Of a stretch of DNA of 64,000 nt, positions 22,579 through 43,663 are shown piece after piece. The translations under genes and the position numbers were made by a program. This DNA comes from an uncultured Acidimicrobiales bacterium (lineage in GTDB: Bacteria; Actinomycetota; Acidimicrobiia; Acidimicrobiales; SHLQ01). The stretch covers positions 463 to 64,462 of the forward strand of contig CALBVK010000246.1 in the NCBI GenBank assembly GCA_937969345.1, given 5' to 3'. Every line of letters starts with the position of its first letter. Positions within the stretch are counted from its first letter, which is position 1. The notes under the pieces were generated by a model. It saw only the letters and a list, made by a program, of their open reading frames with translations, was not told the DNA's origin and searched no databases.

Positions 22579-24846
22579 TCACCAGCCGCCGGAGCTGCCT
22601 CCACCGAAGCCGCCTCCGCCGCCTCCCCAGCCTCCTGAGCTGCCGCCGCCGAAACCTCCACCGAAACCTCCGCCTCCGCCGCCTCCCCAGCCACCGCCGC
22701 GGTGCGAGCGTCCGCCGCCGTGTCCTCGGAAGCCGCCGCCACCGATGATGATGCCGCCGCCGAACCCGCCGCCGAAGCCGCCGCGATTGTTGTGGCGTTG
22801 ACGGCGCTGCGCTTCTCGGTAGAGCTCGTCGGCGGTTACTTCGACCTGTTGCGCTTCGCTGATGGACTTGCGCGGGTCGGTATCGAGCGCGGATTGTGCG
22901 CGGTTGAGGTTGGCCCGCAGACGATCGATCGATGCCTGTGCTTCCTTTTCTCGGCGTCCGGAGAACATGTGGCTTTGGACGTGACGGTCAGCGCGATCTA
23001 GCGCCACGGTTGCGGACCGGATCTCGCTCTCGGCTTGGTGGCGCAGACGTTCGCGTTCGCCGACGGTGGTCTTGAATTCGTCGAGTTCGGTGTTGACGAT
23101 CGATTCGACCTGTCCAGCGAGTTCCATCGCCCGCAGATAGTCGGGTGGGCTGAGTCGCAATGCCTCTTCTGCGGCGCGTTGCGTGTCGACGACGCGTTGG
23201 ACGGTCTCGGGCGCCCGACTCGGCACGTCGTTGCGGTGTTCGGCGACGTAGTTGACCAACAGCTGAGCATCGTCGGCCGACGCTGCAACGGCGCTCGATG
23301 CTCCGCTCTTGGCTGCGGCGAGGAGAACATCGAGTTCGTCGAGTTCATCGAGCAGCTCGTCCGCGAGATCGACCGAGGTCTGAGCTTTCTCGAGCTCATC
23401 GTTGACCATCCGCATCGCTCCGAGATCCCTGGGGATCTCGCCAAGCGACTCGGCCTTAAGCAGGCTCTGTTCGGCGCGAGCGAGCTGGCGGTCCGCTTCG
23501 TCTGGGTGCGCCAGAACATCGTCGAACGAACTCGACGCGTGTGCGGCCACCCAGTTGTGCATGGTTGCTCGCAGTTGCATGACGCGGCCACGCTGGCCTT
23601 GGATCTCGGGCGCCATGTTGGAGCGCCTGACGCCGGTCTCGGCGTGGTGTTCTTCGAGTTCCTCGATGTCGCCTGCGACCGAGGCGATTTCTTCGGCGAT
23701 CGGCTCGAGGTCTTTGCCCATTGCATCGACATCGATTCGCATGGCGAATGGGTCGAGCAAGTCGAGCGCCGCAGCGAGCTCAGCGAGTCGTTGACGCCCC
23801 GAAGAAATCTCCCAACCTTCGGTCGCCCGCTGTTCAGCTGCGTTCAACCCGGAGGTGATCCGCTCACTGGCGGCTCGATGCTGCGCAGCGAGTGCGTCAG
23901 GTTTGCCGCGAAGATCGTCGATCACGGCTTCGAGGGCTGCAAGCTTCGTCTCGGCGTCCTCGGCAAAGCTCACCGCATCAGCGACATGTCCTTCGACCGT
24001 CGTTTGGTCTTCGATGCTGTAGCCACCGACGTCTTCAGGGGTTACTTCACTCACGGGCGACCACGCTTCGTATAGCGCACGCGATGCCTCGGCCGCCTCG
24101 AGTTGAGCGGTGTTGAGCCGGGCCATCGCTCCGCCGGTGATGCGCCCGCCAGCGATGGTCGCTTCCTGTTCGAGGTCGTACCAGCGCGCCTGGATGTTGG
24201 TGACGCGGTTGGATGACTCGGCGAAACGATCGGCGGCGACTTCGCCTCGAGACGTGCGTGTCCGGTTTTTGGTGTAGATCCATGCTCCACCTCCGACGAG
24301 TGCGGCGGTACTGAGGATTCCGCCCGCGAGCGGCGCCGTGTAGCTGGTGGGTGTGGTGCTGAGTCCCTCGACCGTGCCGCCGACACCGCTCGACAGGCCA
24401 GCGCTGATCTCCCCGTTAGCGAAGAAGACGTTCATTCGCCCCACGATGTCGTTGGAGTCGTCGTCAAGCCGCTCGTCGAGGTCGTCGCCATAGGCGACGA
24501 CGGTGTGGCGATCTCCGGTCGATACCGCGAGTAGCACCGTGTTGTCGGCCACGTTGCCGGGGCTGTTGAAGATGGCTGGACATTCTGCTCTCACCTGACC
24601 AGCAAGTCGAGAATCGAGGCTGCCGCTACCGGCGATGATCTCGTCGGTAGCGAATACGGCAAAATCGACTCCGGTCTCCTCCTCGGCGGACTGGATGGCC
24701 GCTCGCAGCCCGGACTCGTCGGCGAGCGAACCCAGGTCGTCCGTCAAGTCACACGCATCTGCTTGAGCTCCCGCCGTGGACGGTATGAGGACACCGAACA
24801 CCATCACGAGACATGCAATACCCGAATACAACCAGCTTCTTGCCAT
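22579..24846 (-). CDS. Large TPM-domain membrane protein with a long helical region and a Gly-rich tail
   Basis: Signal MARSWLYSGIACLVMVFGVLIPSTAGAQA, then a TPM/DUF477-like domain (LRAAIQSAEEETGVDFAVFATDEI...NTVLLAVSTGDRHTVVAYGDDL) and a TM helix. About 450 aa of Ala/Glu/Arg-rich helical sequence follow, then a C-terminal GGFGGGFGGG... tail. ATG 24846 chosen (GAGG upstream, no overlap with the upstream gene). Confidence 0.7.
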   Translation of the reverse strand: MARSWLYSGIACLVMVFGVLIPSTAGAQADACDLTDDLGSLADESGLRAAIQSAEEETGVDFAVFATDEIIAGSGSLDSRLAGQVRAECPAIFNSPGNVADNTVLLAVSTGDRHTVVAYGDDLDERLDDDSNDIVGRMNVFFANGEISAGLSSGVGGTVEGLSTTPTSYTAPLAGGILSTAALVGGGAWIYTKNRTRTSRGEVAADRFAESSNRVTNIQARWYDLEQEATIAGGRITGGAMARLNTAQLEAAEASRALYEAWSPVSEVTPEDVGGYSIEDQTTVEGHVADAVSFAEDAETKLAALEAVIDDLRGKPDALAAQHRAASERITSGLNAAEQRATEGWEISSGRQRLAELAAALDLLDPFAMRIDVDAMGKDLEPIAEEIASVAGDIEELEEHHAETGVRRSNMAPEIQGQRGRVMQLRATMHNWVAAHASSSFDDVLAHPDEADRQLARAEQSLLKAESLGEIPRDLGAMRMVNDELEKAQTSVDLADELLDELDELDVLLAAAKSGASSAVAASADDAQLLVNYVAEHRNDVPSRAPETVQRVVDTQRAAEEALRLSPPDYLRAMELAGQVESIVNTELDEFKTTVGERERLRHQAESEIRSATVALDRADRHVQSHMFSGRREKEAQASIDRLRANLNRAQSALDTDPRKSISEAQQVEVTADELYREAQRRQRHNNRGGFGGGFGGGIIIGGGGFRGHGGGRSHRGGGWGGGGGGGFGGGFGGGSSGGWGGGGGGFGGGSSGGW

Positions 24847-24856
24847 GCCTCGGACC

Positions 24857-26983
24857 CTATCGAGCAGTGAGGGCCTCATCCCAACTTCGATCATGAATCA
24901 GCTGATCCAGCCGTTTGCCGAATGCGTCCGCCATCGCTCGAGCGAACGTCACGGTGAGATGGTTGTCGTCACGTCGAACGAGAATGTCGTCGATGACCGC
25001 CGGGCACATGCCGTCGACGCAGAAGTAGTCCGTCAGGTCAAGGACAGCAAGCTCGTGAACCGCTGCTGCGTCAATGATCGGCCGCTCGCCATTGATCGCC
25101 TCCTCGATTGGTAATGCGCAGTCGACGAGGTCGCCAACGAGCAGAGAAGGGCAATCGAGTCCAACGACGTTGCCGCCAGGTACCGGACGAACGACCGCCA
25201 CCGGCACATCGATCTGTCCGAGGTAGTCCCATGATGCGATGTATGCATTGGTGAGGTGTGCTCGTTCGACATCGGTGGGATCGTGCAAGATTCGGTTCTC
25301 ACTGACAAGCACGAGATCGACGCCCTGGTCGTCGACGATCGCCGACAGCCCGGTCCGCACGGCGTCTGGCCATGTCTCACACCGTTCGAAGCGTTGTGAG
25401 GCTGATGGCGCACCGATAGCGGTCCGACAACCCGACGCCGCCATCACGGTCAATCGCCAGTCCCTCTCCTCTGCAAGACGTTCGAGCGTCGGAACCCAAT
25501 GAGCAGCGTGTGAGTTCCCCAAGATGAGCACGTGTGTCTCTGCGTTCGGGTTGCCTAGCGGGCACAGGAATTCAGCGAAGCAGCCGGATGCATAACCAGC
25601 GGGGAGCTCCTCGCGAGCGTCGATGAAGTTCGGCGTGATGTCCTCGGCGGTGACCTGCACGCCGAGCACTTCGACGATCTGTGGGACCGTTTCGGCCGCA
25701 GCGACGGTCTGCTCGACGTTGGTGGTCGTCTGCAAGAGCATCGCCCCCAGCATGTACGCCGCGACGGTAGCGAATCCGCCAAGCGCGACGCCGCGGATTG
25801 GCTGGCGGAGAACCCGGTGGTGGCGCAGCGGCTGTTCGATCCAGCGGTACGACAATGCTGCTGGCAGGAAGGAAAGCGCAATCGCTAGCACCGATTGCAT
25901 GACGGACAGTGTCCCAAAGAGGGCCATAGCAAACCACAACACTGGCCAGTGCCACAGGTACAACGAGTAGGAACGCTCCCCGATCCACTGAATCGGCGAG
26001 CTCTCGAGCAGTCGCGTAACCCCAGGGGTCGAACCAAGCGCTCCGCCAGCGAGTAACGCCAGCGTGCCTCCGACCGGCAACAGTGCCGCAATGCCGGGAA
26101 AGGGCGTCGATGCCCCGATCAAGACGCTCGACCCAAGGATCGTTGCTAGGCCGCTGACGGTCGCTATTGGGGCGATACGGCGAGCGGCTAACCGGCCTCG
26201 CAGACGTTCGATGACGCCAGGAAGAAGAACGGCGAGCATTGCGCCCGACGACATTTCCCAGATTCGCGTCGTGGTGACGAAATAGGCCCGCGCTGGCTCC
26301 GCAATCGAGTACCAGTAGGAATACGCAAAGCTGAGCACGGTGATGATGGTCAGCACCGCGAGCAACGTCCGTCGCGTTCGTCGAACACCGAGCGAGGCAG
26401 CAGCGACCCCGACCGCCAAGATCAACAGCGGCCACACCGCATAGAACTGCTCCTCGACCGAAAGCGACCAGAAATGCTGAAGCGGACTCGGGACGTCGGT
26501 GCTGTGGTAGTCGACGGCTCGCTCGGCGAACAACCAGTTCACGACGTACAGGCCGCTTCGCTGAATGTCCCAGGAGATCGATCGCCCGTAGAGCTGCGGG
26601 ATGATCAGATCGGGAATCCACCTCGGCACGATGAACAACACCGCCGATACTGCACCGAGCACCGTGAACGAGGCCGGAAGCAGCCGGCGGGCACGCTTGG
26701 CGTAGAAGTCGAGTAGACGGATCGTTCCGGTCGTCTCGAGTTCGCGAACGAGCAAGCCGGTGATCAGATACCCCGAGAGCACGAAGAACACATCGACTCC
26801 GACGAATCCTGCGCTGAGGTACGGGACGCTGCCGTGGTAGAGCAGCACGAGCAGGACCGCTACGGCGCGAAGACCCTGGATATCGTTGCGAAACGCCGTG
26901 GACACGTAGGCCAATCGGCCTATGTCTGTCCAAATTGAGAAACCCTCACCGCTCGCAAGTGAATTCTCGCGACTTTCTGACAT
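24857..26983 (-). CDS. Acyltransferase family 3 (OafA/YrhL-type) membrane protein with a C-terminal SGNH-like domain
   Basis: Start of the family-3 domain FRNDIQGLRAVAVLLVLLYH, about 10 TM helices, and a C-terminal soluble domain with VLILGNSHAAHW (GDSL-like block). ATG 26983 preferred over the TTG at 27010. Confidence 0.85.
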   Translation of the reverse strand: MSESRENSLASGEGFSIWTDIGRLAYVSTAFRNDIQGLRAVAVLLVLLYHGSVPYLSAGFVGVDVFFVLSGYLITGLLVRELETTGTIRLLDFYAKRARRLLPASFTVLGAVSAVLFIVPRWIPDLIIPQLYGRSISWDIQRSGLYVVNWLFAERAVDYHSTDVPSPLQHFWSLSVEEQFYAVWPLLILAVGVAAASLGVRRTRRTLLAVLTIITVLSFAYSYWYSIAEPARAYFVTTTRIWEMSSGAMLAVLLPGVIERLRGRLAARRIAPIATVSGLATILGSSVLIGASTPFPGIAALLPVGGTLALLAGGALGSTPGVTRLLESSPIQWIGERSYSLYLWHWPVLWFAMALFGTLSVMQSVLAIALSFLPAALSYRWIEQPLRHHRVLRQPIRGVALGGFATVAAYMLGAMLLQTTTNVEQTVAAAETVPQIVEVLGVQVTAEDITPNFIDAREELPAGYASGCFAEFLCPLGNPNAETHVLILGNSHAAHWVPTLERLAEERDWRLTVMAASGCRTAIGAPSASQRFERCETWPDAVRTGLSAIVDDQGVDLVLVSENRILHDPTDVERAHLTNAYIASWDYLGQIDVPVAVVRPVPGGNVVGLDCPSLLVGDLVDCALPIEEAINGERPIIDAAAVHELAVLDLTDYFCVDGMCPAVIDDILVRRDDNHLTVTFARAMADAFGKRLDQLIHDRSWDEALTAR

Positions 26984-27182
26984 GTCAGACGTCAGAATTG
27001 ATGTGAACAATGAAGTGCAAATGTTTTCGTCGGCATGGTTCGACGAAAAGGGAATCTCTGGAACGCAAAAACTGAAGATCGCGATGTGGATCGCAGTGTC
27101 GCTGGTATTGGCGACGATCGCATCGATCCTGCTCGCTACGCCGGTAATGGCCGCCCTCGGTATGACGGCGCTTTTAGGATAG
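26982..27182 (+). CDS. Possible small membrane protein (66 aa)
   Basis: MSDVRIDVNNEVQMFSSAWFDEKGISGTQKLKIAMWIAVSLVLATIASILLATPVMAALGMTALLG, with one clear C-terminal TM pair. It lies in a lower-GC gap. Weak evidence; alternative ATG 27021. Confidence 0.3.
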   Translation: MSDVRIDVNNEVQMFSSAWFDEKGISGTQKLKIAMWIAVSLVLATIASILLATPVMAALGMTALLG

Positions 27183-27204: not shown

Positions 27205-27795
27205 TTAGACGGGGACGAGAGCCACTCGCAGAAATCGCAGGAGTTCCTGTCGGCGCTCGGCCAGCGTGCGCAGGCTCGGCTCGATACCCATTGCCCGAAG
27301 AACTTCGACCTCGGTCGCCACTCCCATAATCGTGGAGTAGAGCGAGAACAACAGCAGCCGAGCGTTGCCGCCAAGAACACGACCTTCTTGCAGCGCGTTT
27401 TCAAGTGCATGCTGAGCAGCGTCGATGTGCACGGCAAGCCTGGTCGACAGCTGTACGGCGACCATCGAACCGGGGCGTGAGGCTTCGCGCAGGAGTCCAA
27501 GCAATGCCGGGCGTTGCAGGGCGAGACGGAACACAACGCGAACCGCTCCTTCCACCTGGGCCCAAACGTCGCGTGGATCAACATCGGAAATCACGGCGTC
27601 GAGCTCGTCGATGAACTCGTTAGCGGCCTCGTCGACGACCGCTTGGAAGAGCGCGTTCTTTGAATTGAAGTAGTACAGAATCGACTGCTTTCGCAGGCCG
27701 AGCTCTCGGGCGAGCGCATCGAGCGAGGTCCCGTCGACACCGGTGGTGCCGAACGACTCGAGCGCCGTATCGAGGATCCGCTGACGTGTACTCAC
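27205..27795 (-). CDS. TetR-family transcriptional regulator
   Basis: N-terminal HTH RQRILDTALESFGTTGVDGTSLDALARELGLRKQSILYYFNSKNALF and typical length (196 aa). Confidence 0.88.
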   Translation of the reverse strand: MSTRQRILDTALESFGTTGVDGTSLDALARELGLRKQSILYYFNSKNALFQAVVDEAANEFIDELDAVISDVDPRDVWAQVEGAVRVVFRLALQRPALLGLLREASRPGSMVAVQLSTRLAVHIDAAQHALENALQEGRVLGGNARLLLFSLYSTIMGVATEVEVLRAMGIEPSLRTLAERRQELLRFLRVALVPV

Positions 27796-27825
27796 ACCTC
27801 GGAGACTAGAACGAAAGGTCTTCTG

Positions 27826-27841
27826 TCTACCAATTGGTAGA
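27826..27841. promoter_or_regulatory. Perfect 16-bp palindrome, candidate TetR operator
   Basis: TCTACCAATTGGTAGA lies in the 38-bp divergent gap between the TetR gene (start 27795) and the reductase-HAD gene. It overlaps the annotated TTG start at 27834. Confidence 0.5.
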
Positions 27842-30257
27842 ACAGCGGCAAAGGCTGCTAGAAACAGCTTCTGTGATCAGCGAAAATCTTGCGGGGAAAC
27901 GTATCGCCGTCACCGGGTCGACCGGCTTTCTCGGAACCGCGCTCATCGAACGCCTCATCCGATCCGTACCCGACTGCGAACTCGTCCTTCTCGTGCGCCC
28001 CGGACGGCGCGGCGCGCAGGCTCGCGTCACCCGCGATGTCCTGAAGAACGACGCCTTTGACGGCCTCCGTGCATCACTTGGCAAAGACGAGTTCAACGAG
28101 ATGTGTGCTCGGCGTGTCCAAGCTGTCGCAGGCGACGTCGGCACCGATGGCCTCGGCCTGTCCGGTGAAGACCTCGAGCTGTGGCTCAGCGCGGATGTCA
28201 TTATCCACTCCGCCGCGACCGTGTCCTTCGACTCTCCGCTCGACACTGCAGTGGAGGTCAACCTCCTCGGGCCGCAGCGGATAGCGAACCTGTGTAACGA
28301 ACATGGCGTCTCGCCACATCTCGTGGCCGTATCGACGTGCTACGTAGCCGGTAGCCGCCGCGGCGCCGCTCCCGAACAGCTCGTCGACGAAAGCCCGTAC
28401 TTCGTCGAGGTCGACTGGCGCAGAGAAGTCGACGCTGCTCGTCGGAGCCGCCTCGATGAAGAGACCGCAAGTCGCCAACCCAAGCGCTTGGAGCAGTTCC
28501 GCTCGGAAGCTCAGCGAGAGCTTGGAGCGGTTGGCACGCCAGCCCTCGCCGCCAAGACGGAGACGATTCGACAGGCGTGGGTCACGACCCAGATGGTCGA
28601 GAACGGCCGTGCTCGAGCGTCTTCGCTCGGGTTCCCCGATGCATATGCGTACACAAAGGCCCTCGGCGAGCTCGCTCTCGTCGAGGCTCGCGGCGAAATC
28701 CCCGTGTCGATCGTGCGGCCGTCGATCATCGAGTCGGCATGGTCGGAACCAACCGCAGGTTGGATTCGCGGCTTCCGCATGGCCGAACCGGTCATCATCT
28801 CCTACGCCCGTGGCCTGCTGAGCGAATTCCCTGGGGTTCCCGAAGGTGTCGTCGATGTCATCCCCGTCGACATGGTCGTGGCCGCGATCGTCGCTGTTGC
28901 GGCCCGCGGACCCAAAGACGATGGCCCTGACGTCACCCAGGTTGCGTCGGGAAGCGCAAACCCGCTCCGCTATAAGAACCTCGTCGACTATGCCGAAGAC
29001 TGGTTCACCCGCAACCCAATCTATGACGAGCTCGGCCAACCAATCGCCGTTGCCGCATGGCAGTTTCCTGGCCGTGGACGCGTCGAGAAGCAGCTGGTTC
29101 GCGCACGGACCAGCCTTGAGCGAGCCGACCGAGCACTCGAGAAACTGCCGCTTCGTGGACGGACAGCCGACTTCGCAATGCAGCTACAAGCACGCAAAGA
29201 GCTCCTCGACCAAGCATCGGGATATGTCGAGCTCTACGGCGCATACGCCGAGTGCGAAGCGCTCTATGGACTCGACAACCTGCTGGGACTCTGGGGTGAA
29301 CTCTCGCCCGAAGACCAAGAAGCATTCGGCTTCGACCCACGGGTCATCGACTGGAAGCACTACGTCCAGAACGTCCACCTTCCATCGGTTGTTCGCCAGG
29401 CCCGAGCCAAGACCACGCCGGGCAAGAAGGTTGGACCGAGCCGATCCACGCGGTTGCGCGGACAGGTGCTTTCCCCCGACCGTCAGCTCGCCGTCTTCGA
29501 TCTCGAAAACACCATCATTGCGTCGAACGTGGTCACCTCGTTTGCGTGGCTCGCCACCCGAAACCTCGCTCCTCGTGACCGCGTCATTTTTGCCGCTAAG
29601 GCGCTCTCACAAGGGCCGGGTTGGCTCGCCCTCGACCGCAAAGACCGCAGCGACTTCCTTCGCAGCTTCTACCGCAACTACCGCGGCGCCTACACCGATC
29701 AGATCGAAGCCGACGCTCAAGAACTTCTCAGCCACTACTTGCTGTCAAAGTCCTTCCCAGCAGCGATCCGACGCGTCCGCGAGCACCGTGCTCTCGGCCA
29801 TCGAACGCTTCTGATCACCGGGGCCCTCGAATTTGTTGTCGAACCCCTCCGACCACTGTTTGATGACATCATCTCCGCCGAGATGAGCTCGGTGAATGGG
29901 CGGTATACCGGAGGCATGTCGTCGGTCCCACCCACGGCCGAGAACCGCTACCAGGCCCTCGCCGACTACGCCGCGGCCAACAACATCGACCTACGCGAGT
30001 CGGTCGCCTACGCAGACTCCTCGAGCGACCTACCCATGCTCGAAGCCGTTGGCTTCCCCGTTGCGGTGAACCCCGAAACCAAACTCGCTGCCATCGCCCG
30101 AAAGCGCGGCTGGCTTGTCGAAGACTTCCGCAAGCAGTCCGGGGCCCCCGGACGACCACTTCCTATCGCGCCACGAACCGGCGCCCGTTCTGAACCGATG
30201 CTGAGTGCGATGATGAATCGCGGCTCTGGCCTCGCCAAGGAGAAAACCCGCCGATGA
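27834..30257 (+). CDS. Fusion protein: acyl-CoA/acyl-ACP reductase-type NAD-binding domain (NAD_binding_4, male-sterility type) plus C-terminal HAD-IB hydrolase domain
   Basis: N-terminal GKRIAVTGSTGFLGTALIERL ... IIHSAATVSFDSPLD ... STCYVAG ... YAYTKALGE (YxxxK). C-terminal HAD motifs: LAVFDLENTII (motif I, reading D-x-E rather than D-x-D), LITGA, and AYADSSSDLPMLEAVG. The start is uncertain (TTG 27834 or GTG 27873). Confidence 0.75.
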   Translation: MVEQRQRLLETASVISENLAGKRIAVTGSTGFLGTALIERLIRSVPDCELVLLVRPGRRGAQARVTRDVLKNDAFDGLRASLGKDEFNEMCARRVQAVAGDVGTDGLGLSGEDLELWLSADVIIHSAATVSFDSPLDTAVEVNLLGPQRIANLCNEHGVSPHLVAVSTCYVAGSRRGAAPEQLVDESPYFVEVDWRREVDAARRSRLDEETASRQPKRLEQFRSEAQRELGAVGTPALAAKTETIRQAWVTTQMVENGRARASSLGFPDAYAYTKALGELALVEARGEIPVSIVRPSIIESAWSEPTAGWIRGFRMAEPVIISYARGLLSEFPGVPEGVVDVIPVDMVVAAIVAVAARGPKDDGPDVTQVASGSANPLRYKNLVDYAEDWFTRNPIYDELGQPIAVAAWQFPGRGRVEKQLVRARTSLERADRALEKLPLRGRTADFAMQLQARKELLDQASGYVELYGAYAECEALYGLDNLLGLWGELSPEDQEAFGFDPRVIDWKHYVQNVHLPSVVRQARAKTTPGKKVGPSRSTRLRGQVLSPDRQLAVFDLENTIIASNVVTSFAWLATRNLAPRDRVIFAAKALSQGPGWLALDRKDRSDFLRSFYRNYRGAYTDQIEADAQELLSHYLLSKSFPAAIRRVREHRALGHRTLLITGALEFVVEPLRPLFDDIISAEMSSVNGRYTGGMSSVPPTAENRYQALADYAAANNIDLRESVAYADSSSDLPMLEAVGFPVAVNPETKLAAIARKRGWLVEDFRKQSGAPGRPLPIAPRTGARSEPMLSAMMNRGSGLAKEKTRR

Positions 30258-31861
30258 GCCCCCGCAAAGCACCTCGTCCTGGACTCGTGCTCGATGTCGA
30301 CGCCTCTACTCCCCCGGTGCTGTTCCACCACGGTGAGAACTTCCGCATGGAGAAGTTGCCCGTTGGACGATCACGAATCATCTACCCCGCCGAGCCACTG
30401 CGCGGACTGATCGATCCTGATCAGGCGATTCGCGACGCACTCGAGAACCCGATCGATTCCGAGCCGCTGCGGGCGTTGATGACCGCCGATATGAAGCTGA
30501 CGATCGCCTTTGACGACATCAGCTTGCCGCTTCCTCCAATGCGCAAGCCCGATATCCGCCAACGCGTGATCGAAGCGGTTCTCGACATTGCCGCCGAGGT
30601 CGGTGTGGACGATGTGCACATCATCGCTGCGCTCGCGCTGCACCGTCGGATGACCGAAGATGAGCTTCGACACGCCGTTGGCGACCGCGTGTACGACGCG
30701 TTCGCTCCGAGCGGACGCCTCTACAACCATGACGCCGAAGACCCTGATGGCATGACCCATCTCGGCACGACGAACCACGGTGAAGAGGTCCAGATCTCCA
30801 AGCGCGCGGTCGACAGCGACCTCACCGTCTACGTGAACATCAATCTCGTCTCGATGGACGGCGGACACAAGAGCACGGCGACTGGCCTGTCTGGCTACAC
30901 GGCGCTGCGACATCACCACAACGTCGACACCATGCAGAAGTCCAAGTCGTTTATGGACCCACCGAACTCCGAACTTCATACGAAGAACTGGCGTCAGGGC
31001 GATGTGATCCGCAACGCTGGCGTGAAGATCTTTCAGATCGAAACAACGATCAACAACAACACGTTCGGCGAGACCGGACCGCTGTCGATGCTGCAGAAGC
31101 GCGAATGGGAATGGACCGGTCGCGACCGAGCAAAGTTCCTCGCTATGCAGGGCGGGCTCAGCTACATGACCCCTTCGGCGCGTCGAAAGGTGTTCCACAG
31201 CTGGAAGGCTCCCTACGAGCTGACCTCGGTGCAGGCTGGCGAGATCGAAGCCGTCCATAAGGTCACGACAGAGAACACCTTTGCGCAACACCTGGTTCCC
31301 GTTGAAGGCCAAACCGACATCATGACAATGGGGCTGCCCTATATCTCCCCCTACAACGTCAACTCGGTCATGAACCCAATCCTTGTTGCGGTACTCGGGC
31401 TTGGGTACTTCTTCAATCTCTATCGGGGCAAGCCGCTCGTTCGCGAAGGCGGGGTGCTCATCATGAGCCATCCAACGCCATGGGATTTCAACCCGGTGCA
31501 CCACCCGAGCTACATCGACTTCTTCGAGCAAGTGCTCGCAGATACGACCGATCCGCACGAGATCGAGAAGAAGTACGAGAAGCAGTACGCCGAAGACGAG
31601 TGGTACCGACACCTGTACCGCACCAGCTACGCCTACCACGGCGTCCACCCCTTCTACATGTGGTATTGGTGCAGCCACGCCCTACAGCACCTCGGCCAGG
31701 TCATCATCGTCGGCGGCGACCCCAAAGCGGTACGACGCTTGGGCTTCCGCCCAGCCTCGACCTTGCAGGATGCGCTCGAGATGGCGACCGACACGGTTGG
31801 ACCACAGCCAACAATCACCCACTACCACAACCCGCCAATGCTGATGGCGGACGTGAAGTAG
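30254..31861 (+). CDS. LarA-like (lactate racemase N-terminal domain, DUF2088) protein
   Basis: 535-aa ORF, ATGA-coupled to the upstream gene. The blocks IIAALALHRRMTEDEL and SMDGGHKSTATGLSGYTALRHHHN resemble the His and GG-x-KS...H motifs of nickel-pincer-dependent LarA as I remember them. Confidence 0.6.
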   Translation: MSPRKAPRPGLVLDVDASTPPVLFHHGENFRMEKLPVGRSRIIYPAEPLRGLIDPDQAIRDALENPIDSEPLRALMTADMKLTIAFDDISLPLPPMRKPDIRQRVIEAVLDIAAEVGVDDVHIIAALALHRRMTEDELRHAVGDRVYDAFAPSGRLYNHDAEDPDGMTHLGTTNHGEEVQISKRAVDSDLTVYVNINLVSMDGGHKSTATGLSGYTALRHHHNVDTMQKSKSFMDPPNSELHTKNWRQGDVIRNAGVKIFQIETTINNNTFGETGPLSMLQKREWEWTGRDRAKFLAMQGGLSYMTPSARRKVFHSWKAPYELTSVQAGEIEAVHKVTTENTFAQHLVPVEGQTDIMTMGLPYISPYNVNSVMNPILVAVLGLGYFFNLYRGKPLVREGGVLIMSHPTPWDFNPVHHPSYIDFFEQVLADTTDPHEIEKKYEKQYAEDEWYRHLYRTSYAYHGVHPFYMWYWCSHALQHLGQVIIVGGDPKAVRRLGFRPASTLQDALEMATDTVGPQPTITHYHNPPMLMADVK

Positions 31862-31867
31862 GCCACG

Positions 31868-32842
31868 ATGACCGCTGTCAGCAACTACAGAGCAAAGGTT
31901 TCCCAGCGTCTCGCTGGAACCGAAGTTCCCTTGGTCGGCAAGCTCCGCAAGCCATTGCAAGCGCTGCCATTTCCGTACACGGCCCCCACGGTGCCCCAGA
32001 CGGTGGAGGCCCCCGAAAAGCAGAGTGTTACGGGCACGAACTTCCCAACGGACTGGGCCCGCACCGAACCCGCCCGCAGGACCCGCGCCGTGCTCATCGA
32101 CACGATGGTTCGCCCGGTGATGGCCGGGCTTGCGCAACCGACCAAGCGAGGCATGGACCGCCTTCATGGCCTCGAGGGGCCGGCGGTCTTTGCAGCGAAC
32201 CATCACAGTCACGTCGACACCCCCCTGCTCTTGAGTTCTCTGCCGATGCCGTGGCGACATCGGGTGGTTATCGGCGCCGCCGCTGACTACTTCTTCGGCA
32301 CCCGCGTCACCGGCGTCCTTTCCGCACTGGTCATCGGCGCCATTCCAATCGATAGAACCAAGATCAGTCGCGCGTCGACGGACCTCGCGCGCGATTTGAT
32401 CGACGAGGGCTGGTCATTGGTGGTCTTTCCCGAGGGTGGACGAAGCCCAGATGGCTGGGGTCAGCCATTCCGTGGCGGCGCGGCCTTTATTGCTCAGCGG
32501 ACGAGTGTCCCGGTAGTCCCTGTGCACATCGAAGGCACCGGCCGGATCCTGCGCAAGGGCAAGAGCACCCCTACCCCAAGCCGCACCACGATCACCTTTG
32601 GCGAACCCATGTACTGCGATCCCGACGAGGACGCTCGGGCGTTCAACGATCGGATCGAGGCCCGCGTCGCCGAGCTCGCTGACGAAGCTATGACCAACTG
32701 GTGGGACGCTCGCAAGCGTGCGCACGCCCAGGACACGCCATTGCTGACCGGACCGCAGACGGCGACGTGGCGACGGGTGTGGGAACTCGATGCCGACCGG
32801 CCGCGACGCAACGGCCCGAAGTCCCGAAGCTGGCCCAAGTAG
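31868..32842 (+). CDS. 1-acyl-sn-glycerol-3-phosphate acyltransferase family (PlsC/AGPAT-like)
   Basis: Acyltransferase motif I NHHSHVDTPLL (H-x4-D), motif III VFPEGGRS, and motif IV-like VPVVPVHI. Confidence 0.85.
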   Translation: MTAVSNYRAKVSQRLAGTEVPLVGKLRKPLQALPFPYTAPTVPQTVEAPEKQSVTGTNFPTDWARTEPARRTRAVLIDTMVRPVMAGLAQPTKRGMDRLHGLEGPAVFAANHHSHVDTPLLLSSLPMPWRHRVVIGAAADYFFGTRVTGVLSALVIGAIPIDRTKISRASTDLARDLIDEGWSLVVFPEGGRSPDGWGQPFRGGAAFIAQRTSVPVVPVHIEGTGRILRKGKSTPTPSRTTITFGEPMYCDPDEDARAFNDRIEARVAELADEAMTNWWDARKRAHAQDTPLLTGPQTATWRRVWELDADRPRRNGPKSRSWPK

Positions 32843-36924: not shown

Positions 36925-39207
36925 GTGGCCGTTTACGCCAACACCCCTATCGAACTGATCAACGCCGTCTACGGCACGCTCGATGAGCGTCTTGCGAAGG
37001 GCCGTGAGCGTCTCGGCCGGGCGCTGACGCTCACCGAGAAGATCTTGATCAACCACCTCGACGACGTCGACACCGGTGGCATGGAGCGCGGCGTTAGCTA
37101 CACCGACCTTCGCCCAGATCGTGTCGCGATGCAGGATGCCACTGCACAGATGGCCTGGCTGCAATTCATGACCGCAGGTCTTCCGCAGACAGCGGTCCCG
37201 ACCACAACACACTGCGACCACCTGATTCAGGCCCGCGTCGACGGCAAGACCGACCTCGCTGTCGCCGCCGACACCAACAAAGAGGTGTATCAGTTCCTCG
37301 AGGATGTCAGCGCCAAGTTCGGTGGCGGATTCTGGGCCCCGGGCTCGGGCATTATCCATCAGGTTGTGCTCGAGAACTACGCGTTTCCCGGCGGCATGAT
37401 GCTCGGCACCGACAGCCACACGCCAAACGCTGGTGGCCTCGGCATGATCGCTGTCGGCGTGGGCGGCGCGGACGCTGTCGACGTCATGACCGGATTCCCG
37501 TGGAACGTCCGTTGGCCAAAGGCGATCGGCGTGCACCTGACCGGTGAGCTCACCGGATGGGCTGCGCCGAAGGACGTCATCTTGAAGGTCGCCGAGATCC
37601 TCACCGTCAAGGGTGGAACCGGCGCAATCGTTGAATACTTCGGCCCCGGAGCCGAAAGCATGTCCGCTACGGGCAAGGCCACGATCTGCAACATGGGTGC
37701 CGAGATCGGCGCTACCACGTCGTTGTTTGCCTACGACGACGCCACGAGTCGTTACCTAAAGGCCACCGGCCGCGAAGAAATCGACGACGCTGCTCGCAAG
37801 GTCGCCCACCATCTGCGGGCCGACGACGAGGTCTACGCAAACCCCGGCGACTACTTCGACCAGGTCATCGAAATCGACCTCAGCACCCTCGAGCCGCTGA
37901 TCAACGGCCCACATACCCCTGACCTTGCCCGTCCGCTCAGCAAACTCGGTGCCGAAGCCGAGCTCAACGGATGGCCAAAGGAAATCTCGGCGGCCCTGAT
38001 CGGTTCTTGCACGAACTCTTCCTATGAGGACATCAGCCGTGCAGCCTCGATCGCCCGCGATGCTGCCGCCAAGGGTCTCACCGCCAAGGTGCCGTTCATG
38101 GTTACGCCTGGCTCTGAGGCAACAATGCGCACCATCGAACGCGATGGCTTCCTCGCCGACCTCGAAGCAATCGGGGGCATCGTTCTCGCCAACGCCTGCG
38201 GTCCATGTATTGGCCAGTGGAAGCGCGATGACCGCGAAGGCAGCGAAGGCACCGCCAACAGCATCGTGACGTCGTACAACCGCAACTTCCCAAAGCGCAA
38301 CGATGGCGACGGAGCAACCCTTGCCTTTGTGACGTCGCCCGAGACAACGGTTGCACTCGCTCTCGCAGGCACGCTCGACTTCGATCCAAAGACCGACACG
38401 TTGACCAACGACGCTGGCGAACAGGTCATGCTCACCGTGGGTGCGGCGATCGAATTGCCGAGCGCCGGGTTCGAAGACGGCACGTCGATGTTCATCGCTC
38501 CCCCAGAGGACGCTTCCGACATCGACATCAGCGTCTCCCCGGACTCTGATCGACTCCAGTTGCTCACGCCATTCCCGGCATGGGACGGCAACGACTACCT
38601 CGAGCTCCCGATCCTTGGCAAAGGCATGGGCAAGGTCACCACCGACCACATCTCGATGGCTGGCCCATGGCTCAAGTACCGCGGCCACCTCGAGAACATT
38701 TCGGGCAACCTGTACCTCGGTGTCGTCAACGCCTATACCGGCGAGAGCGAGCTAGCCGTCGACCCATCCGATGGCCAGACCAAGAGCTACCCAAACATTG
38801 CAAAAAGCCTGCACGAAAAGGGCATCAACTGGGTGTTCATTGGTGAGGAAAACGTCGGTGAGGGTTCCAGCCGTGAACATGCGGCCATGGAGCCACGCTT
38901 CCGTGGGTGCCATGCCGTGTTCGCCAAGTCGTTTGCTCGAATCCACGAGACGAACCTGAAGAAGCAGGGCGTGTTGGCACTCACGTTTGCCGACCCTGAC
39001 TTTTGGCTTGCAATCGAAGAGGGAGACACGATCTCGATCACCGGCCTCGCCGAGCTCTCCCCGGGCAAGCCCGTCGATTGTGTCCTGCATAAGGCCGACG
39101 GCGAGAGCATCGAATTCCAGGCAAACCAGACGCTCTCCCCCGATCAGATCGAGTGGTTCCACGCAGGATCTGCACTCAACCTGATCCGACAGCAGACAGC
39201 AGGCTGA
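36925..39207 (+). CDS. acn: Aconitate hydratase, mitochondrial-type (about 760 aa)
   Basis: GRALTLTEKILINHLDD matches the N-terminal signature of mitochondrial aconitase (RPLTLSEKIVYGHLDD). Fe-S ligand contexts are GTDSHTPNAGGLG, IGSCTNSSYEDI and ANACGPCIGQW. The swivel domain contains GEGSSREHAA. GTG start. Confidence 0.93.
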   Translation: MAVYANTPIELINAVYGTLDERLAKGRERLGRALTLTEKILINHLDDVDTGGMERGVSYTDLRPDRVAMQDATAQMAWLQFMTAGLPQTAVPTTTHCDHLIQARVDGKTDLAVAADTNKEVYQFLEDVSAKFGGGFWAPGSGIIHQVVLENYAFPGGMMLGTDSHTPNAGGLGMIAVGVGGADAVDVMTGFPWNVRWPKAIGVHLTGELTGWAAPKDVILKVAEILTVKGGTGAIVEYFGPGAESMSATGKATICNMGAEIGATTSLFAYDDATSRYLKATGREEIDDAARKVAHHLRADDEVYANPGDYFDQVIEIDLSTLEPLINGPHTPDLARPLSKLGAEAELNGWPKEISAALIGSCTNSSYEDISRAASIARDAAAKGLTAKVPFMVTPGSEATMRTIERDGFLADLEAIGGIVLANACGPCIGQWKRDDREGSEGTANSIVTSYNRNFPKRNDGDGATLAFVTSPETTVALALAGTLDFDPKTDTLTNDAGEQVMLTVGAAIELPSAGFEDGTSMFIAPPEDASDIDISVSPDSDRLQLLTPFPAWDGNDYLELPILGKGMGKVTTDHISMAGPWLKYRGHLENISGNLYLGVVNAYTGESELAVDPSDGQTKSYPNIAKSLHEKGINWVFIGEENVGEGSSREHAAMEPRFRGCHAVFAKSFARIHETNLKKQGVLALTFADPDFWLAIEEGDTISITGLAELSPGKPVDCVLHKADGESIEFQANQTLSPDQIEWFHAGSALNLIRQQTAG

Positions 39208-39217
39208 TCCAAGACTC

Positions 39218-40138
39218 ATGGATCTTCGCCAGCTCAACGCCATCGTGGCGGTCTCGGAACACCGAAGCTTCTCTGCCGCTGCCCGAGCCCTCCACACGGT
39301 GCAGTCAAATGTTTCAACGCACGTGGCTCGCCTCGAGCGAGAACTCGACGCGGTGTTGGTCGACCGGCGCACCGGCGAGTTAACCGCAGAGGGCGAGGTT
39401 GTCGTCCTTCGAGCGCTACGTATCAAGGCCGAGCTCCAGGCAATCCCCGCCGATGTGTCTGCGCTCCGCGACGACATTCGTGGCACTGTTCGCTTCGGCA
39501 TCATCGGCACGACAGGACGTTGGCTCGTGCCAGCGCTCCTGACGGCACTGAAGAAGGACTTCCCTGGTGTACACCTCGTCGTGGTCGACGCGACCACCAC
39601 AGGCTTGTTGCCGCAGCTGCAGAGTGGGCAGTTAACAATGGCTGTTCTGAACCTGCCGCTGAGCGAACCCGAACTTGCCTCCGAGCCGCTCTTCGATGAG
39701 GAACGCATCCTCATTGTTCCCAAGACGCATCCGTTGTCCAAACACGAGAGAGTGACGCTGGCCGACCTCGCAAAGCACGAAATCGTGTTGCCTCCGGAGG
39801 GGACTCAGTTCCGAAACGAGGTCGACGAAGCCGCCGCCGAACTCGGCATCGTGCTCAAGCCAGCGGCCGAACTCGATGGCATGCGCCTGCTGGCGTCGCT
39901 CGCGTTTCAGGGATATGCACCCGCTTTGGTTCCCGCTACGGCGGCTCCCTTTGGCGAAGGCAACGACTGGTGCATCGTCAATGTCGACGATATGTCGACC
40001 CGAAGCGTTGGGCTGGCGTACCGTCGCTGGACCACACTTCCGGCGCCGGCGAGGGCTGTCCAGCAGGTAATCGGCGAGGTCGTGGCCGAGCGCGGAGCGC
40101 AGCAACCAGGCCTTCACGTCACCGTTGCAGACGACTAG
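39218..40138 (+). CDS. LysR-family transcriptional regulator
   Basis: N-terminal HTH MDLRQLNAIVAVSEHRSFSAAARALHTVQSNVSTHVARLE and a LysR substrate-binding domain of appropriate length. Confidence 0.9.
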   Translation: MDLRQLNAIVAVSEHRSFSAAARALHTVQSNVSTHVARLERELDAVLVDRRTGELTAEGEVVVLRALRIKAELQAIPADVSALRDDIRGTVRFGIIGTTGRWLVPALLTALKKDFPGVHLVVVDATTTGLLPQLQSGQLTMAVLNLPLSEPELASEPLFDEERILIVPKTHPLSKHERVTLADLAKHEIVLPPEGTQFRNEVDEAAAELGIVLKPAAELDGMRLLASLAFQGYAPALVPATAAPFGEGNDWCIVNVDDMSTRSVGLAYRRWTTLPAPARAVQQVIGEVVAERGAQQPGLHVTVADD

Positions 40139-40152
40139 CGGCCGCGTCGGCG

Positions 40153-40629
40153 CTACTTGCCGTTGTTGTCTTTGACGTTCGTGTTCTGATTGGTGTTTCC
40201 CTTGCCGTTGCCGGGAATGTCCTTTTCACAAATCAGGCCATCGCCATTGGCATCGACGTCTTGGCCGTTCTTTTTGGTCGAGTTGTTGGGGATCAAACGC
40301 CAGCCCGTTGGGCAGGTCCTGTCACCGTCGTCGTAGACATCCAAGGCTCCGCCGTTTGACGTCTGATCTGGGTCGGAGTCATCGGACTCGCTGCCGGAGG
40401 GACCAGCGCCGGTCGCCAGGTCGACGGCTTCGTCCTCCACCGGCGCCATCGATTGCACGACGGCAACGATGTCGTCGAAATCTGATGCGACGTGCTGAGA
40501 TATCAGCTGGACGCTGCCAAGCGACATGGCAGCGAGCGTTCCCATGAGCATCGCGTATTCGACGATGGCGGTGCCTCGATCGCCGCGAGCCTTCAGTCTA
40601 TGAAGAAGTCTTTTCACCATGATCGCCAC
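40153..40629 (-). CDS. Flp-like (type IVb/Tad) prepilin N-terminus fused to a roughly 110-aa acidic/Asn-rich C-terminal extension
   Basis: RGDRG-TAIVEYAMLMGTLAAMSLGSV matches the Flp leader/G-x4-EY motif plus hydrophobic helix. The C-terminal part carries a DxDxDG-type loop (VDANGDGLICEKD) and a low-GC Asn/Lys-rich tail. Confidence 0.55.
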   Translation of the reverse strand: MAIMVKRLLHRLKARGDRGTAIVEYAMLMGTLAAMSLGSVQLISQHVASDFDDIVAVVQSMAPVEDEAVDLATGAGPSGSESDDSDPDQTSNGGALDVYDDGDRTCPTGWRLIPNNSTKKNGQDVDANGDGLICEKDIPGNGKGNTNQNTNVKDNNGK

Positions 40630-43591: not shown

Positions 43592-43663
43592 CACCAGTTC
43601 GCGCATGTCACATGCCGCATCTCCGATGTGGCCATATTCCTTGCCTGGTTTACCCTAGCCACA

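Follow-up and report, generated by a model that had tools for sequence, protein, structure and literature searches.

Bacterial ether-lipid synthesis has been linked genetically to the elbABCDE cluster of M. xanthus (MXAN_1531-1527; MIBiG BGC0000871), which we cite as it is presented in two later articles (Lorenzen et al., 2014, via PMC9131029 and PMC13012113). Mutants in elbD lose the ether lipids, inactivation of ElbE reduces them, and an elbB insertion that is likely polar on elbC is partially rescued by elbD alone. Clusters of sponge symbionts often hold elbD and elbB only. Structures of LarA-like NPN enzymes with a single histidine, LarASp and LarABw, have been deposited as PDB 9q2u, 9q3k and 9q3j (Gatreddi et al., 2025; PMC12611868). 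In an independent listing, COGs for PlsC, a SerB-type HAD and a reductase adjoin the LarA homologs (LarAH) of groups 14, 15 and 16 (Desguin et al., 2020, Table S1; PMC7583248).

The locus analyzed here lies in a window of 64 kb, the whole stretch of DNA under study. Three closely packed genes, coding for a fused fatty-acyl reductase (FAR)/HAD-IB hydrolase, a LarA homolog and a PlsC-type acyltransferase, are located next to a divergent tetR gene (Table 1). All four ORFs are found where the first-pass annotation had placed them, and the ATGA overlap at 30254-30257, in which the LarA-like start lies over the upstream stop, as well as the 6-nt gap at 31862-31867 between the LarA-like and the acyltransferase gene are evident in the sequence itself. 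Downstream of the acyltransferase gene lie about 400 bp without coding sequence. The 807-aa reductase of the same annotation does exist as the maximal ORF (27834-30257, plus strand, start TTG 27834). However, translation probably starts at GTG 27873, since TTG 27834 is the centre of a conserved operator palindrome. This GTG is also the start chosen by gene callers (794 aa), and alignments with reductase homologues mostly begin only at residue 11-15.

Table 1. Features of the operon and its upstream region. Coordinates refer to the window.
Feature	Position	Strand	Description	Support
TetR-family regulator, 196 aa	27205..27795	-	divergent from operon	TetR_N 3.5e-13
Perfect 16-bp palindrome TCTACCAATTGGTAGA, likely TetR operator	27826..27841	.	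in 77-bp tetR-reductase intergenic region	
Fused fatty-acyl reductase/HAD-IB hydrolase gene	27873..30257	+	794 aa from GTG 27873 (probable start)	Pfam, NCBIfam
Reductase region, ElbD N-terminal type	27909..29375	+	NAD_binding_4 residues 26-352, Sterile 459-514 (807-aa numbering)	
HAD-IB hydrolase domain, ElbB type, motif I F-D-L-E-N-T	29484..30131	+	residues 551-766	
LarA homolog of group 14, 535 aa	30254..31861	+	orthologue-level relative of ElbC/MXAN_1529	
PlsC/AGPAT-type acyltransferase, 324 aa	31868..32842	+	last operon gene	PF01553 6e-20

The palindrome, with TTG 27834 at its midpoint, is present as a single copy in the window, where 0 copies are expected by chance. Its core, TACCA-NN-TGGTA, was found in 55 of the 92 fetched loci, in one copy each except for locus L039 with three, and this motif was the best palindrome in most of the tetR-reductase intergenic regions that were checked (n = 51). 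Among 63 related loci whose flanks are long enough, 50 carry a divergent TetR orthologue upstream. We conclude that the palindrome is likely the predicted TetR operator, and that the three genes probably form one operon that is repressed by the divergent TetR via this conserved site.

The gene set is also kept outside the window. In 64/64 Acidimicrobiales loci with enough flank the reductase, HAD and acyltransferase surround the LarA homolog, and gene order is maintained. Because all these loci keep the set and most carry the divergent TetR, the co-occurrence is far more than chance, and the co-conservation that the first-pass annotation had proposed to look for in gene neighbourhoods was thus confirmed. 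A Zn-ADH gene is additionally found in 35 of 79 Acidimicrobiales loci; the window has none. These data bear on another explanation, namely a housekeeping or remodelling pathway to phosphatidic acid carried out by HAD and PlsC, with the reductase adjoining by chance. Several related genomes indeed contain a separate HAD-IB-PlsC fusion paralogue near the operon, and its existence shows cooperation of the two domains in ordinary actinobacterial lipid synthesis. However, this paralogue is a gene of its own whose motif is the canonical DxD, the HAD domain of the operon is fused to the reductase and not to PlsC, and the four domains are conserved together, under a dedicated repressor. We consider this explanation extremely improbable.

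Domain searches assigned the three proteins to the NAD_binding_4, HAD, Lar_N and Acyltransferase families, in agreement with the first-pass annotation, and the motifs GSTGFLG, YxxxK, FDLENT and H-x4-D it had read are present in the sequence and invariant or nearly so in 75-81 orthologues. The reductase contains the full FAR domain pair (NAD_binding_4, 1e-57, and Sterile; Pfam) and is 30% identical to ElbD residues 9-539 (E 4e-43). Its motifs GxTGFLG, S167 and Y271xxxK275 are kept in 72-75 of 75 sequences. Full-length reductase-HAD fusions extend down to approximately 36% identity. Below these, the best-scoring matches include many ElbD-type multidomain proteins, and the relatives comprise FAR-HAD, FAR-ACS-HAD, FAR-ACS-ACP-AT and FAR-AT fusions.

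The HAD domain (PF12710, 4e-27) is 34% identical to full-length ElbB (E 1e-30), and both exceed the cutoff of TIGR01490 (110.9 bits for the window protein vs. a cutoff of 98.3). It had been suspected that the FDLENT motif, in which the Asp+2 is replaced by Glu, might abolish phosphatase chemistry. The comparison does not support this idea. Residues D556, E558, T560, T662, D728 and D732, which include the nucleophile, the Thr of motif II and the Asp residues of motif IV, are invariant in 75/75 sequences, and the Asp+2 position is Glu in all 75 Acidimicrobiales sequences. Since DxD and DxE alternate in motif I of distant, otherwise orthologous fusions, the comparison suggests that the Glu still works as acid/base.

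The acyltransferase is encoded as a separate protein in the window and its gene is present in all of the 64 loci mentioned above. It is 34% identical to the acyltransferase domain of ElbD (1269-1403; E 7e-16), H112 and D117 of its HX4D motif (H112x4D117) are invariant in 79/79 sequences, and FPEGGRS is invariant or nearly so. A full FAR domain pair together with an acyltransferase could also point to a fatty-alcohol or wax-type neutral lipid, in which a free alcohol, or a related acceptor, is esterified by the PlsC-type enzyme, HAD and LarAH carry out unrelated side reactions and no ether bond is made. In line with this, NCBI has given one distant fusion the name 'alcohol-forming fatty acyl-CoA reductase', and control by TetR suggests a conditional function rather than one in the core membrane. 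On the contrary, wax synthesis normally proceeds via WS/DGAT enzymes and not via HX4D acyltransferases. Furthermore, ElbD-type proteins are frequent among the best-scoring reductase relatives below the fusions, the partner genes are the ElbB/ElbC set, and Rubrobacteraceae have a sister cluster with translational coupling to plsY, which encodes a glycerol-3-phosphate acyltransferase. A wax-type product is therefore unlikely.

The LarA homolog carries a Lar_N domain (PF09861, 2e-39; Pfam) and reaches 878 bits against NF052592, the NCBIfam model for LarAH14/15/16 (cutoff 740), while ElbC scores 849 bits. The two proteins share 51% identity over 525 aa, and ElbC (MXAN_1529) falls into LarAH group 15. 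The analysis shows that ElbC belongs to the nickel-pincer LarA enzyme family. Sequence matches in the PDB (9q2u, E 1e-31) cover both domains of the window protein, and its structural model (pLDDT 89) has the LarA two-domain fold, with 9q3k as best match (TM 0.77/0.85) and significant matches to LarA-family structures only. Residues D88, H130, K206 and H222 (Asp72, His108, Lys184 and His200) are invariant in 81 Acidimicrobiales LarAH sequences and also in the alignment with myxobacterial ElbC relatives. Acidimicrobiia, Rubrobacteraceae and Myxococcota, with an overall identity of about 50%, all have the Lys that tethers the cofactor, the His that binds Ni, the Asp that binds the ribose and the catalytic His. 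Of the operon's proteins, LarAH is moreover the best conserved (median 76% vs. 71% for aconitase).

The second catalytic His (His174) is absent from the window protein, whose alignment to 9q2u shows a deletion of the loop, and the position is a gap for groups 14 and 15 in Dataset S2 of Desguin et al. (PMC7583248). The Arg75 position is L91; in the same dataset groups 14 and 15 have I/L/V, S, a gap and N at Arg75, Tyr294, Gln295 and Lys298, the last three replacements being those given for the groups rather than results of a re-alignment of the window protein. Since it is without the second catalytic His and the carboxylate-binding Arg, LarAH is, as far as its sequence tells, probably not a hydroxyacid racemase. 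For a group 14 orthologue, Frankia LarAH14, seven hydroxyacid reactions were assayed and none showed activity (Desguin et al., 2020; PMC7583248). Of the 'nickel-pincer-type epimerase' proposed before, the nickel-pincer part is backed by the cofactor-binding residues, but the epimerase part conflicts with the two missing residues and the inactive orthologue.

These replacements also bear on a lipid with a 2-hydroxy acid or diol backbone (e.g., 2-hydroxyacyl, glycerate or 1,2-diol), for which LarAH would be a true hydroxyacid isomerase, or an aldose-ketose-type hydride-shift isomerase acting on a 2-hydroxy-aldehyde made by the reductase. Every characterised LarA homologue acts on 2-hydroxy acids, and NF052592 bears the name 'hydroxyacid isomerase'. 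We regard such a lipid as quite unlikely, with the carboxylate-binding R75, Y294, Q295 and K298 replaced in groups 14 and 15, the Frankia protein inactive, and the sole genetics for the gene set pointing to alkyl-glycerol ethers.

Genes for larB, larC or larE were seen neither in the window nor near related loci, and a motif scan, which is a weak test, detected none in 1.58 Mb of flanks. This would fit LarAH/ElbC being a structural or regulatory subunit without cofactor, or with another one, while the reductase, HAD and acyltransferase, together with NAD(P)-dependent dehydrogenases, do all of the chemistry. The partial rescue of the polar elbB insertion by elbD alone points in the same direction, as do ElbD-type clusters without LarAH; none was found within 8 kb at a FAR-ACS-HAD locus with Zn-ADH or at a canonical ElbD locus. 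However, the four residues for cofactor binding and catalysis do not vary across the three groups named above, and LarAH is the most constrained protein of the operon. Group 16, a degenerate paralogue group without the Lys, shows what loss of this residue looks like. A role without the nickel-pincer cofactor is hence very improbable.

We favour the reading of this locus as the bacterial elb ether-lipid gene set in its Acidimicrobiales form, working by the mechanism outlined below, and regard it as reasonably probable. Homology and synteny establish that the predicted domains match ElbB, ElbC and both ends of ElbD, with catalytic motifs intact. The first-pass annotation was correct in taking a fatty-acyl reductase together with an AGPAT domain as hallmark of elb. 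Nevertheless, it did not recognize the combination as a described pathway and treated the HAD and LarA-like proteins as additions to the elb theme. The combination matches the partly characterised elb cluster, in which the two proteins have ElbB and ElbC as their homologues, and a sister operon occurs in Rubrobacteraceae, where ether lipids are abundant.

In the proposed pathway, the reductase would turn acyl-CoA or acyl-ACP from the pool into a fatty aldehyde or alcohol. The ACS and ACP domains of ElbD may be missing from the window because the cellular acyl-CoA/acyl-ACP pool makes activating and carrier domains needless. The alkyl chain would then be joined to sn-1 of a glycerol-phosphate backbone. 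For LarAH and HAD, we infer the chemical roles as follows. LarAH, with its tethered nickel-pincer nucleotide and single catalytic His, might move a hydride to and from a secondary alcohol of an intermediate that is not a carboxylate; the sn-2 carbinol is the most plausible site (a G3P/DHAP-type interconversion). No inversion would be needed at this step, since the hydride could be returned to the same face. A neighbouring NAD(P)-linked step could be carried out by Zn-ADH in the sister clusters and by ElbA/ElbE in myxobacteria. The fused HAD domain would perform Mg-dependent phosphoryl transfer on a phosphorylated intermediate, and the PlsC-type enzyme would acylate the free hydroxyl, yielding 1-O-alkyl-2-acyl-glycerol-3-phosphate, which could enter the ordinary head-group pathways.

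Several points count against the elb reading. ElbE and the ACS/ACP domains of ElbD are absent, LarAH is not universal among ElbD-type loci, and our literature search turned up no description of ether lipids from Acidimicrobiia. Furthermore, the case of Pontiella shows that ether lipids need not accompany an elbD homologue. Indirect support for a link between the operon and ether-lipid production comes by analogy from the Rubrobacteraceae cluster, since in Rubrobacterales approximately 46% of the core lipids are reported to be ether-linked. A 2023 study by Sinninghe Damste et al. reportedly names, in its abstract, a putative operon of Rubrobacter for 1-O-alkyl glycerol phosphate.

The Rubrobacteraceae sister cluster (loci L090-L092) consists of plsY, FAR-HAD, Zn-ADH and LarAH. 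Its FAR-HAD is 43% identical to the window protein over 769 aa and its LarAH 54%, and their order is the same. In contrast, its partner acyltransferase is an upstream PlsY whereas that of the window is PlsC-type and downstream, a Zn-ADH absent from the window lies between fusion and LarAH, and the HAD motif is DxD instead of DxE. No TetR was seen at these clusters. Compared with LarASp, LarABw and Frankia LarAH14, the window LarAH has the same two-domain fold, cofactor Lys, Ni-His, ribose Asp and one catalytic His at a similar length of about 500 aa or more, and it shares group 14 with the Frankia protein. While LarASp and LarABw have Asn at His174 and a carbohydrate-metabolism gene context, groups 14 and 15 lack the His174 loop, have Leu/Ile/Val at Arg75 and lie among lipid genes. 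The AGPS-dependent route (eukaryotic FAR1, GNPAT and AGPS; MXAN_1676-1674 in M. xanthus) also makes 1-O-alkyl glycerolipids with a FAR-type reductase and an HX4D acyltransferase, and a FAR-AT fusion of this type is among the reductase relatives (P0319). The window encodes no AGPS flavoenzyme; the elb route likewise operates without it.

The elb cluster and the window have in common a HAD-IB protein (ElbB), a LarA homolog (ElbC) and FAR and HX4D acyltransferase domains (ElbD), and the order HAD, LarAH, acyltransferase corresponds to elbB, elbC, elbD. ElbD additionally contains AMP-binding (ACS) and PP-binding (ACP) domains, which Pfam finds in none of the three window proteins, and it aligns to the window solely over its FAR and acyltransferase ends. 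An ElbA/ElbE-type NAD-dependent epimerase/dehydratase (SDR) gene is not present between 27205 and 33250. Unlike in elb, the reductase is fused to HAD and not to ACS-ACP-AT, the acyltransferase is separate, there is a divergent TetR whose operator is conserved, motif I of HAD is DxE instead of DxD, and the phylum is Actinomycetota. Judged by its predicted proteins, each domain of the three-gene operon has a counterpart in M. xanthus elbABCDE, and the locus is a rearranged actinobacterial version of that cluster. The placement of ElbC in the LarA family suggests a candidate, open to experiment, for the chemistry by which bacteria make ether lipids.

The four open reading frames (ORFs) of the first-pass annotation were found where it had placed them, and both the ATGA stop/start overlap and the 6-nt gap between the plus-strand genes could be read in the sequence. 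Its domain calls were all borne out by Pfam and NCBIfam annotation. For the first gene the ORF of up to 807 aa stands, but a start at TTG 27834 is unlikely. A perfect 16-bp palindrome, TCTACCAATTGGTAGA (27826-27841), is centred on this codon; it was confirmed by direct reading and a DNA pattern search and occurs a single time in the window (0 expected by chance). Gene callers start the gene at GTG 27873, giving 794 aa, and the alignment of most homologues begins only at residue 11-15. The core of the palindrome, TACCA-NN-TGGTA, was present in 55 of the 92 loci fetched, in one copy each except for locus L039, where three copies lie in the tetR-reductase intergenic region (L039:7576-7654). Of the 51 tetR-reductase intergenic regions examined, most have this motif as their best palindrome. 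We therefore regard the palindrome as the probable TetR operator and 27873 as the most likely start of the reductase gene. A scan for promoter and terminator consensus sequences revealed nothing above chance, and the operon boundaries consequently rest on gene spacing and synteny.

Positions, strands and annotation of lipid-related genes in the window
Feature	Position	Strand	Annotation
GT4 glycosyltransferase	3125-4213	-	
Lip_A_acyltrans/PatA-like acyltransferase	4210-5184	-	
CDP-alcohol phosphatidyltransferase	5160-5861	-	
TetR gene	27205-27795	-	ORF
Reductase-HAD ORF, maximally 807 aa	27834-30257	+	NAD_binding_4, Sterile, HAD (TIGR01490 above cutoff)
LarA-homolog ORF, 535 aa	30254-31861	+	Lar_N; NF052592 'LarAH14/15/16', 878 bits (cutoff 740)
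PlsC-type acyltransferase ORF, 324 aa	31868-32842	+	Acyltransferase domain

The combination of genes had initially been taken not to be a described pathway, with a lead to the myxobacterial ether-lipid genes. The lead proved right and the set matches the known elb cluster, since every domain of the window operon has a counterpart in elbB, elbC or elbD. Desguin et al. (2020; PMC7583248) divided LarA homologs (LarAHs) into 25 groups, and their Table S1 lists COGs for PlsC, a SerB-type HAD and a thioester reductase or epimerase as neighbours of groups 14, 15 and 16, all labelled 'unknown function', with a long-chain acyl-CoA synthetase COG in addition for group 15. Their Dataset S2 assigns MXAN_1529 of Myxococcus xanthus to group 15. 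Since the elb operon spans MXAN_1531 (elbA) to MXAN_1527 (elbE), MXAN_1529 is elbC. Our searches for close homologues were filled with near-identical Acidimicrobiia and gave no taxonomic breadth; the MXAN_1529 sequence from the supplement of the paper was used instead. The fetched M. xanthus locus comprises elbA (epimerase family), elbB (HAD, PF12710), elbC (Lar_N), elbD (NAD_binding_4, Sterile, AMP-binding, PP-binding and Acyltransferase domains) and elbE (epimerase family). In BLASTP, the LarA homolog was 51% identical to ElbC over 525 aa, the HAD domain 34% to full-length ElbB (E 1e-30), the reductase 30% to ElbD residues 9-539 (E 4e-43) and the acyltransferase 34% to ElbD residues 1269-1403 (E 7e-16). 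Furthermore, ElbC reached 849 bits on the NCBIfam equivalog of the LarA homolog, and ElbB passes the HAD-IB subfamily model of the window HAD. Judged by these matches and shared models, the window operon is a domain-shuffled elbB-elbC-elbD set.

The closest solved relatives of the LarA homolog in a sequence search are the single-histidine nickel-pincer nucleotide (NPN) enzymes LarASp and LarABw (E 1e-31). Its AlphaFold model (pLDDT 89, pTM 0.89) matched 9q3k with TM 0.77/0.85, and only LarA-family structures matched significantly. A nickel-pincer-type epimerase had been proposed. Its cofactor part is retained, since all sequences from Acidimicrobiia to Myxococcota share the ribose Asp, the tethering Lys, the Ni-binding His and one catalytic His, but the loop with the second catalytic His is deleted and Leu91 replaces Arg75, the substrate carboxylate binder of LarA. 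In the alignment of Desguin et al. (2020; PMC7583248) groups 14 and 15 also lack Tyr294, Gln295 and Lys298, and Frankia LarAH14 was active in none of seven hydroxyacid reactions. From the loss of the second His and the carboxylate binders, together with the inactivity of the Frankia protein, we infer a substrate other than an alpha-hydroxy acid, and take the NCBIfam name 'hydroxyacid isomerase' to be extrapolated from the family level. Residue 205 (30866-30868), preceding the tethering Lys206, is dimorphic among orthologues (Trp, n=52; His, n=29), and is His in the window protein and in ElbC. In group 16 of Dataset S2 the Frankia paralogues FRAAL3757 and Francci3_2278 have Gly for Lys184, one of them also Asn for His108, and still adjoin PlsC and HAD genes (Desguin et al., 2020; PMC7583248); they may be degenerate, cofactor-free copies.

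A relative is encoded in more than 598 species-level genomes, the best match among genomes having 94% identity at the LarA homolog. Cultured carriers of the operon include Salinilacustrithrix flava (NZ_CP133888), Aquihabitans sp. G128 (NZ_CP077604) and McL0605 (NZ_CP188252), and Ilumatobacter coccineum. Synteny was analyzed in the best 80 of these relatives, all of Acidimicrobiales type. The order reductase-HAD, LarA homolog, acyltransferase is maintained wherever the contig allows, and the co-conservation on which the initial proposal depended was found in 64/64 loci with enough flank, with a divergent TetR gene in 50/63. In 35 of 79 loci the fusion gene and the LarA homolog are separated by a gene for a Zn-dependent alcohol dehydrogenase (Zn-ADH; ~400 aa), which the window lacks; the presence of this gene did not covary with the Trp/His dimorphism at residue 205 or with any other LarAH column. 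The catalytic motifs of all parts are intact among 75-81 orthologues: GxTGFLG and YxxxK of the reductase, D556, T560, T662, D728 and D732 of the HAD (807-aa numbering), D88, H130, K206 and H222 of the LarA homolog, and HX4D and FPEGGRS of the acyltransferase. In the C-terminal part of the LarA homolog, further His and Tyr residues are invariant, among them H335, H406, H417, H462, H465, Y367 and Y385. Of the operon's proteins the LarA homolog is under the strongest constraint, with a median identity to the window protein of 76%, followed by HAD (66%), reductase (62%) and acyltransferase (55%), and 71% for a nearby aconitase, a ranking that may be mildly biased because the loci were picked by LarA-homolog similarity.

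This aconitase, which scores 1042 bits as the 'mitochondrial-type' equivalog TIGR01340, precedes genes for a LysR regulator, a carboxyltransferase and a citrate synthase (36925-43591, plus strand). It lies <0.1 to ~9 kb downstream of the operon in 35 related loci (aligned at >=60% coverage), which is probably plain synteny. On the other side (22579-27010, minus strand), an AT3-SGNH acyltransferase ORF, weakly similar to mycobacterial SucT (240 bits, cutoff 1275), overlaps the start of a downstream 771-aa TPM-domain gene by 38 nt, a pair not conserved beyond the closest relatives. As conservation of the flanking AT3-SGNH, TPM and TPR genes is limited to the closest relatives or absent, we rejected them as cluster members. 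A second lipid locus of the window, by position unrelated to the operon, is a classic actinobacterial phosphatidylinositol-mannoside gene set downstream of threonyl-tRNA synthetase (3125-5861 and 8257-10221, minus strand), made up of the CDP-alcohol phosphatidyltransferase, the Lip_A_acyltrans/PatA-like acyltransferase and the GT4 glycosyltransferase of the table. Two proteins with RTX calcium-binding nonapeptide repeats (10320-11357 and 43628-45832, plus strand), one fused to a subtilase domain, are presumably secreted.

The fusion protein was searched exhaustively against 1.84 billion representatives. Full-length reductase-HAD fusions were found down to ~36% identity, and the next-best matches include many proteins of ~1,370-1,520 aa that align over the N-terminal reductase domain only. 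Pfam annotation of a sample revealed reductase-HAD, canonical ElbD, reductase-acyl-CoA synthetase (ACS)-HAD (match P0273), reductase-acyltransferase and reductase-ACS architectures, the reductase-ACS-HAD family reaching 80% identity with canonical ElbD proteins in the part that both possess. Since an ElbB-type HAD appears to have been fused to the reductase independently, we argue that it takes a working part in the pathway and is no passenger. The earlier suspicion that FDLENT, with Glu at Asp+2, might abolish phosphatase chemistry was not supported. FDLENT is invariant in 75 Acidimicrobiales orthologues, distant full-length fusions have either DxD or DxE, and DxD is found in ElbB as well as in the Rubrobacter fusion and in reductase-ACS-HAD proteins. 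With the remaining catalytic residues all intact, FDLENT seems to be a conservative exchange of the acid/base residue and not an inactivation.

Two loci, L088 (8001-12973) and L089 (8001-12344), share upstream genes for sulfatase, SDR, AP_endonuc_2 and SIS/PGI proteins. L088 encodes a reductase-ACS-HAD protein and a translationally coupled Zn-ADH, L089 a canonical ElbD and, after it, a DAG kinase and a CDP-alcohol transferase. P0273, which is closely related to the L088 protein, shares 80% identity with the fatty-acyl reductase-ACS part of the L089 ElbD, and the two loci look like a recent C-terminal module swap, HAD versus ACP-acyltransferase. Several related genomes carry, 7-10 kb downstream of the operon, a fusion of HAD-IB (canonical FFDLDRT) and PlsC-type acyltransferase (NHRSYLD), as in the 468-aa protein of L034 (18724-20127, minus strand); weaker matches occur in L011, L020, L046, L047 and L055, and no copy in the window. 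We take this protein to resemble M. tuberculosis Rv2483c. The fusion shows HAD-IB and PlsC modules cooperating also in lipid synthesis that is probably housekeeping.

A sister cluster is present in Rubrobacteraceae. One cluster of fusion proteins, P0247, has 44% identity to the window protein and includes members from Rubrobacter sp. and a Rubrobacteraceae MAG, and its loci have the order plsY, reductase-HAD, Zn-ADH, LarA homolog. The fusion is 43% and the LarA homolog 54% identical to its window counterpart, and the dehydrogenase is 46% identical to that of Acidimicrobiales locus L020. Whereas Acidimicrobiales have the PlsC-type gene, here plsY (acyl-phosphate:glycerol-3-phosphate acyltransferase; L090:7418-8008 and L091:3917-4492) replaces it and overlaps the reductase-HAD start by 8-17 nt, which ties the cluster to glycerol-3-phosphate acylation. 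For Rubrobacterales, ~46% of the core lipids are given as ether-linked in a report that names Sinninghe Damste et al. (2023) as its source. Alkyl and vinyl ether lipids are lost in elbD mutants of M. xanthus. A putative operon for 1-O-alkyl glycerol phosphate, like one in other aerobic bacteria, is reportedly mentioned for Rubrobacter in the 2023 abstract by Sinninghe Damste et al.; a Rubrobacter operon was probably already noted in that year.

Taken together, we consider it fairly likely that the operon functions in alkyl-ether glycerolipid synthesis. The reductase would convert acyl-thioesters from the pool to a fatty aldehyde or alcohol, and a glycerol-phosphate backbone would receive the chain at sn-1. 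The LarA homolog would shuttle a hydride at the secondary carbinol of a non-carboxylate intermediate, with return to the same face, the HAD would perform phosphoryl transfer on a phosphorylated intermediate, and the PlsC-type enzyme would acylate the remaining hydroxyl. That the LarA homolog itself supplies or enables the ether-forming step is a tentative idea and rather unlikely. Similarly doubtful is the joint reading, by which ElbC and LarAH group 14 would be the first NPN enzymes to act in lipid metabolism and also the first whose substrate is not a hydroxyacid, acting as a redox-neutral 'borrowed-hydride' catalyst that supplies or enables the long-sought AGPS-independent ether-bond step of the aerobic bacterial elb pathway. 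Here, either the sn-2 carbinol of a glycerol-phosphate intermediate would be transiently oxidised or an aldehyde-derived hemiacetal reduced, and the smallest system able to make 1-O-alkyl-2-acyl-glycerol-3-phosphate would be the three-gene operon of Acidimicrobiales.

Several observations count against these proposals. The reductase-ACS-HAD gene of L088 is coupled to a Zn-ADH of the same type (45-50% identity) with no LarA homolog within 8 kb, and the syntenic canonical ElbD locus L089 has neither HAD nor LarA homolog; we therefore reject LarAH as an obligatory partner of every ElbD-type reductase. Sponge-symbiont clusters often consist of elbD and elbB alone, an elbB insertion is rescued in part by elbD alone, and an elbD homologue is no guarantee of ether lipids. 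Genes larB, larC and larE were seen neither among the ~50 Pfam-annotated ORFs of the window (only housekeeping genes) nor, in the weaker test of a motif scan, in 1.58 Mb of flanks, and in the LarA literature we found no discussion of carriers lacking larBCE. Our literature search likewise found no ether-lipid report for Acidimicrobiia.

The elb cluster, ElbD matches in Actinobacteria and the gene neighbourhood in the supplement of Desguin et al. (2020; PMC7583248) were already known. New are the compact TetR-controlled three-gene architecture of Acidimicrobiales with its conserved predicted operator, and the explicit identification, by sequence comparison, of ElbC as a group-15 LarA homolog that appears to keep the cofactor site and to have lost the hydroxyacid site. 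[quoted passage not shown] Our literature search found no paper naming lactate racemase together with elbD or ether lipids. The two orphans are one protein family. If confirmed, ether-lipid capacity would reach a widespread aquatic, soil and sponge-associated actinobacterial order, with bearing on the interpretation of environmental alkyl-glycerol biomarkers, a marker gene set other than ElbD-only searching would be suggested, and nickel-pincer chemistry would be broadened past alpha-hydroxy acids. Compared with the elb operon of M. xanthus, the window operon dispenses with acyl-activating and carrier domains and with ElbA and ElbE, and its three proteins form a compact construct for reconstitution with larBCE.
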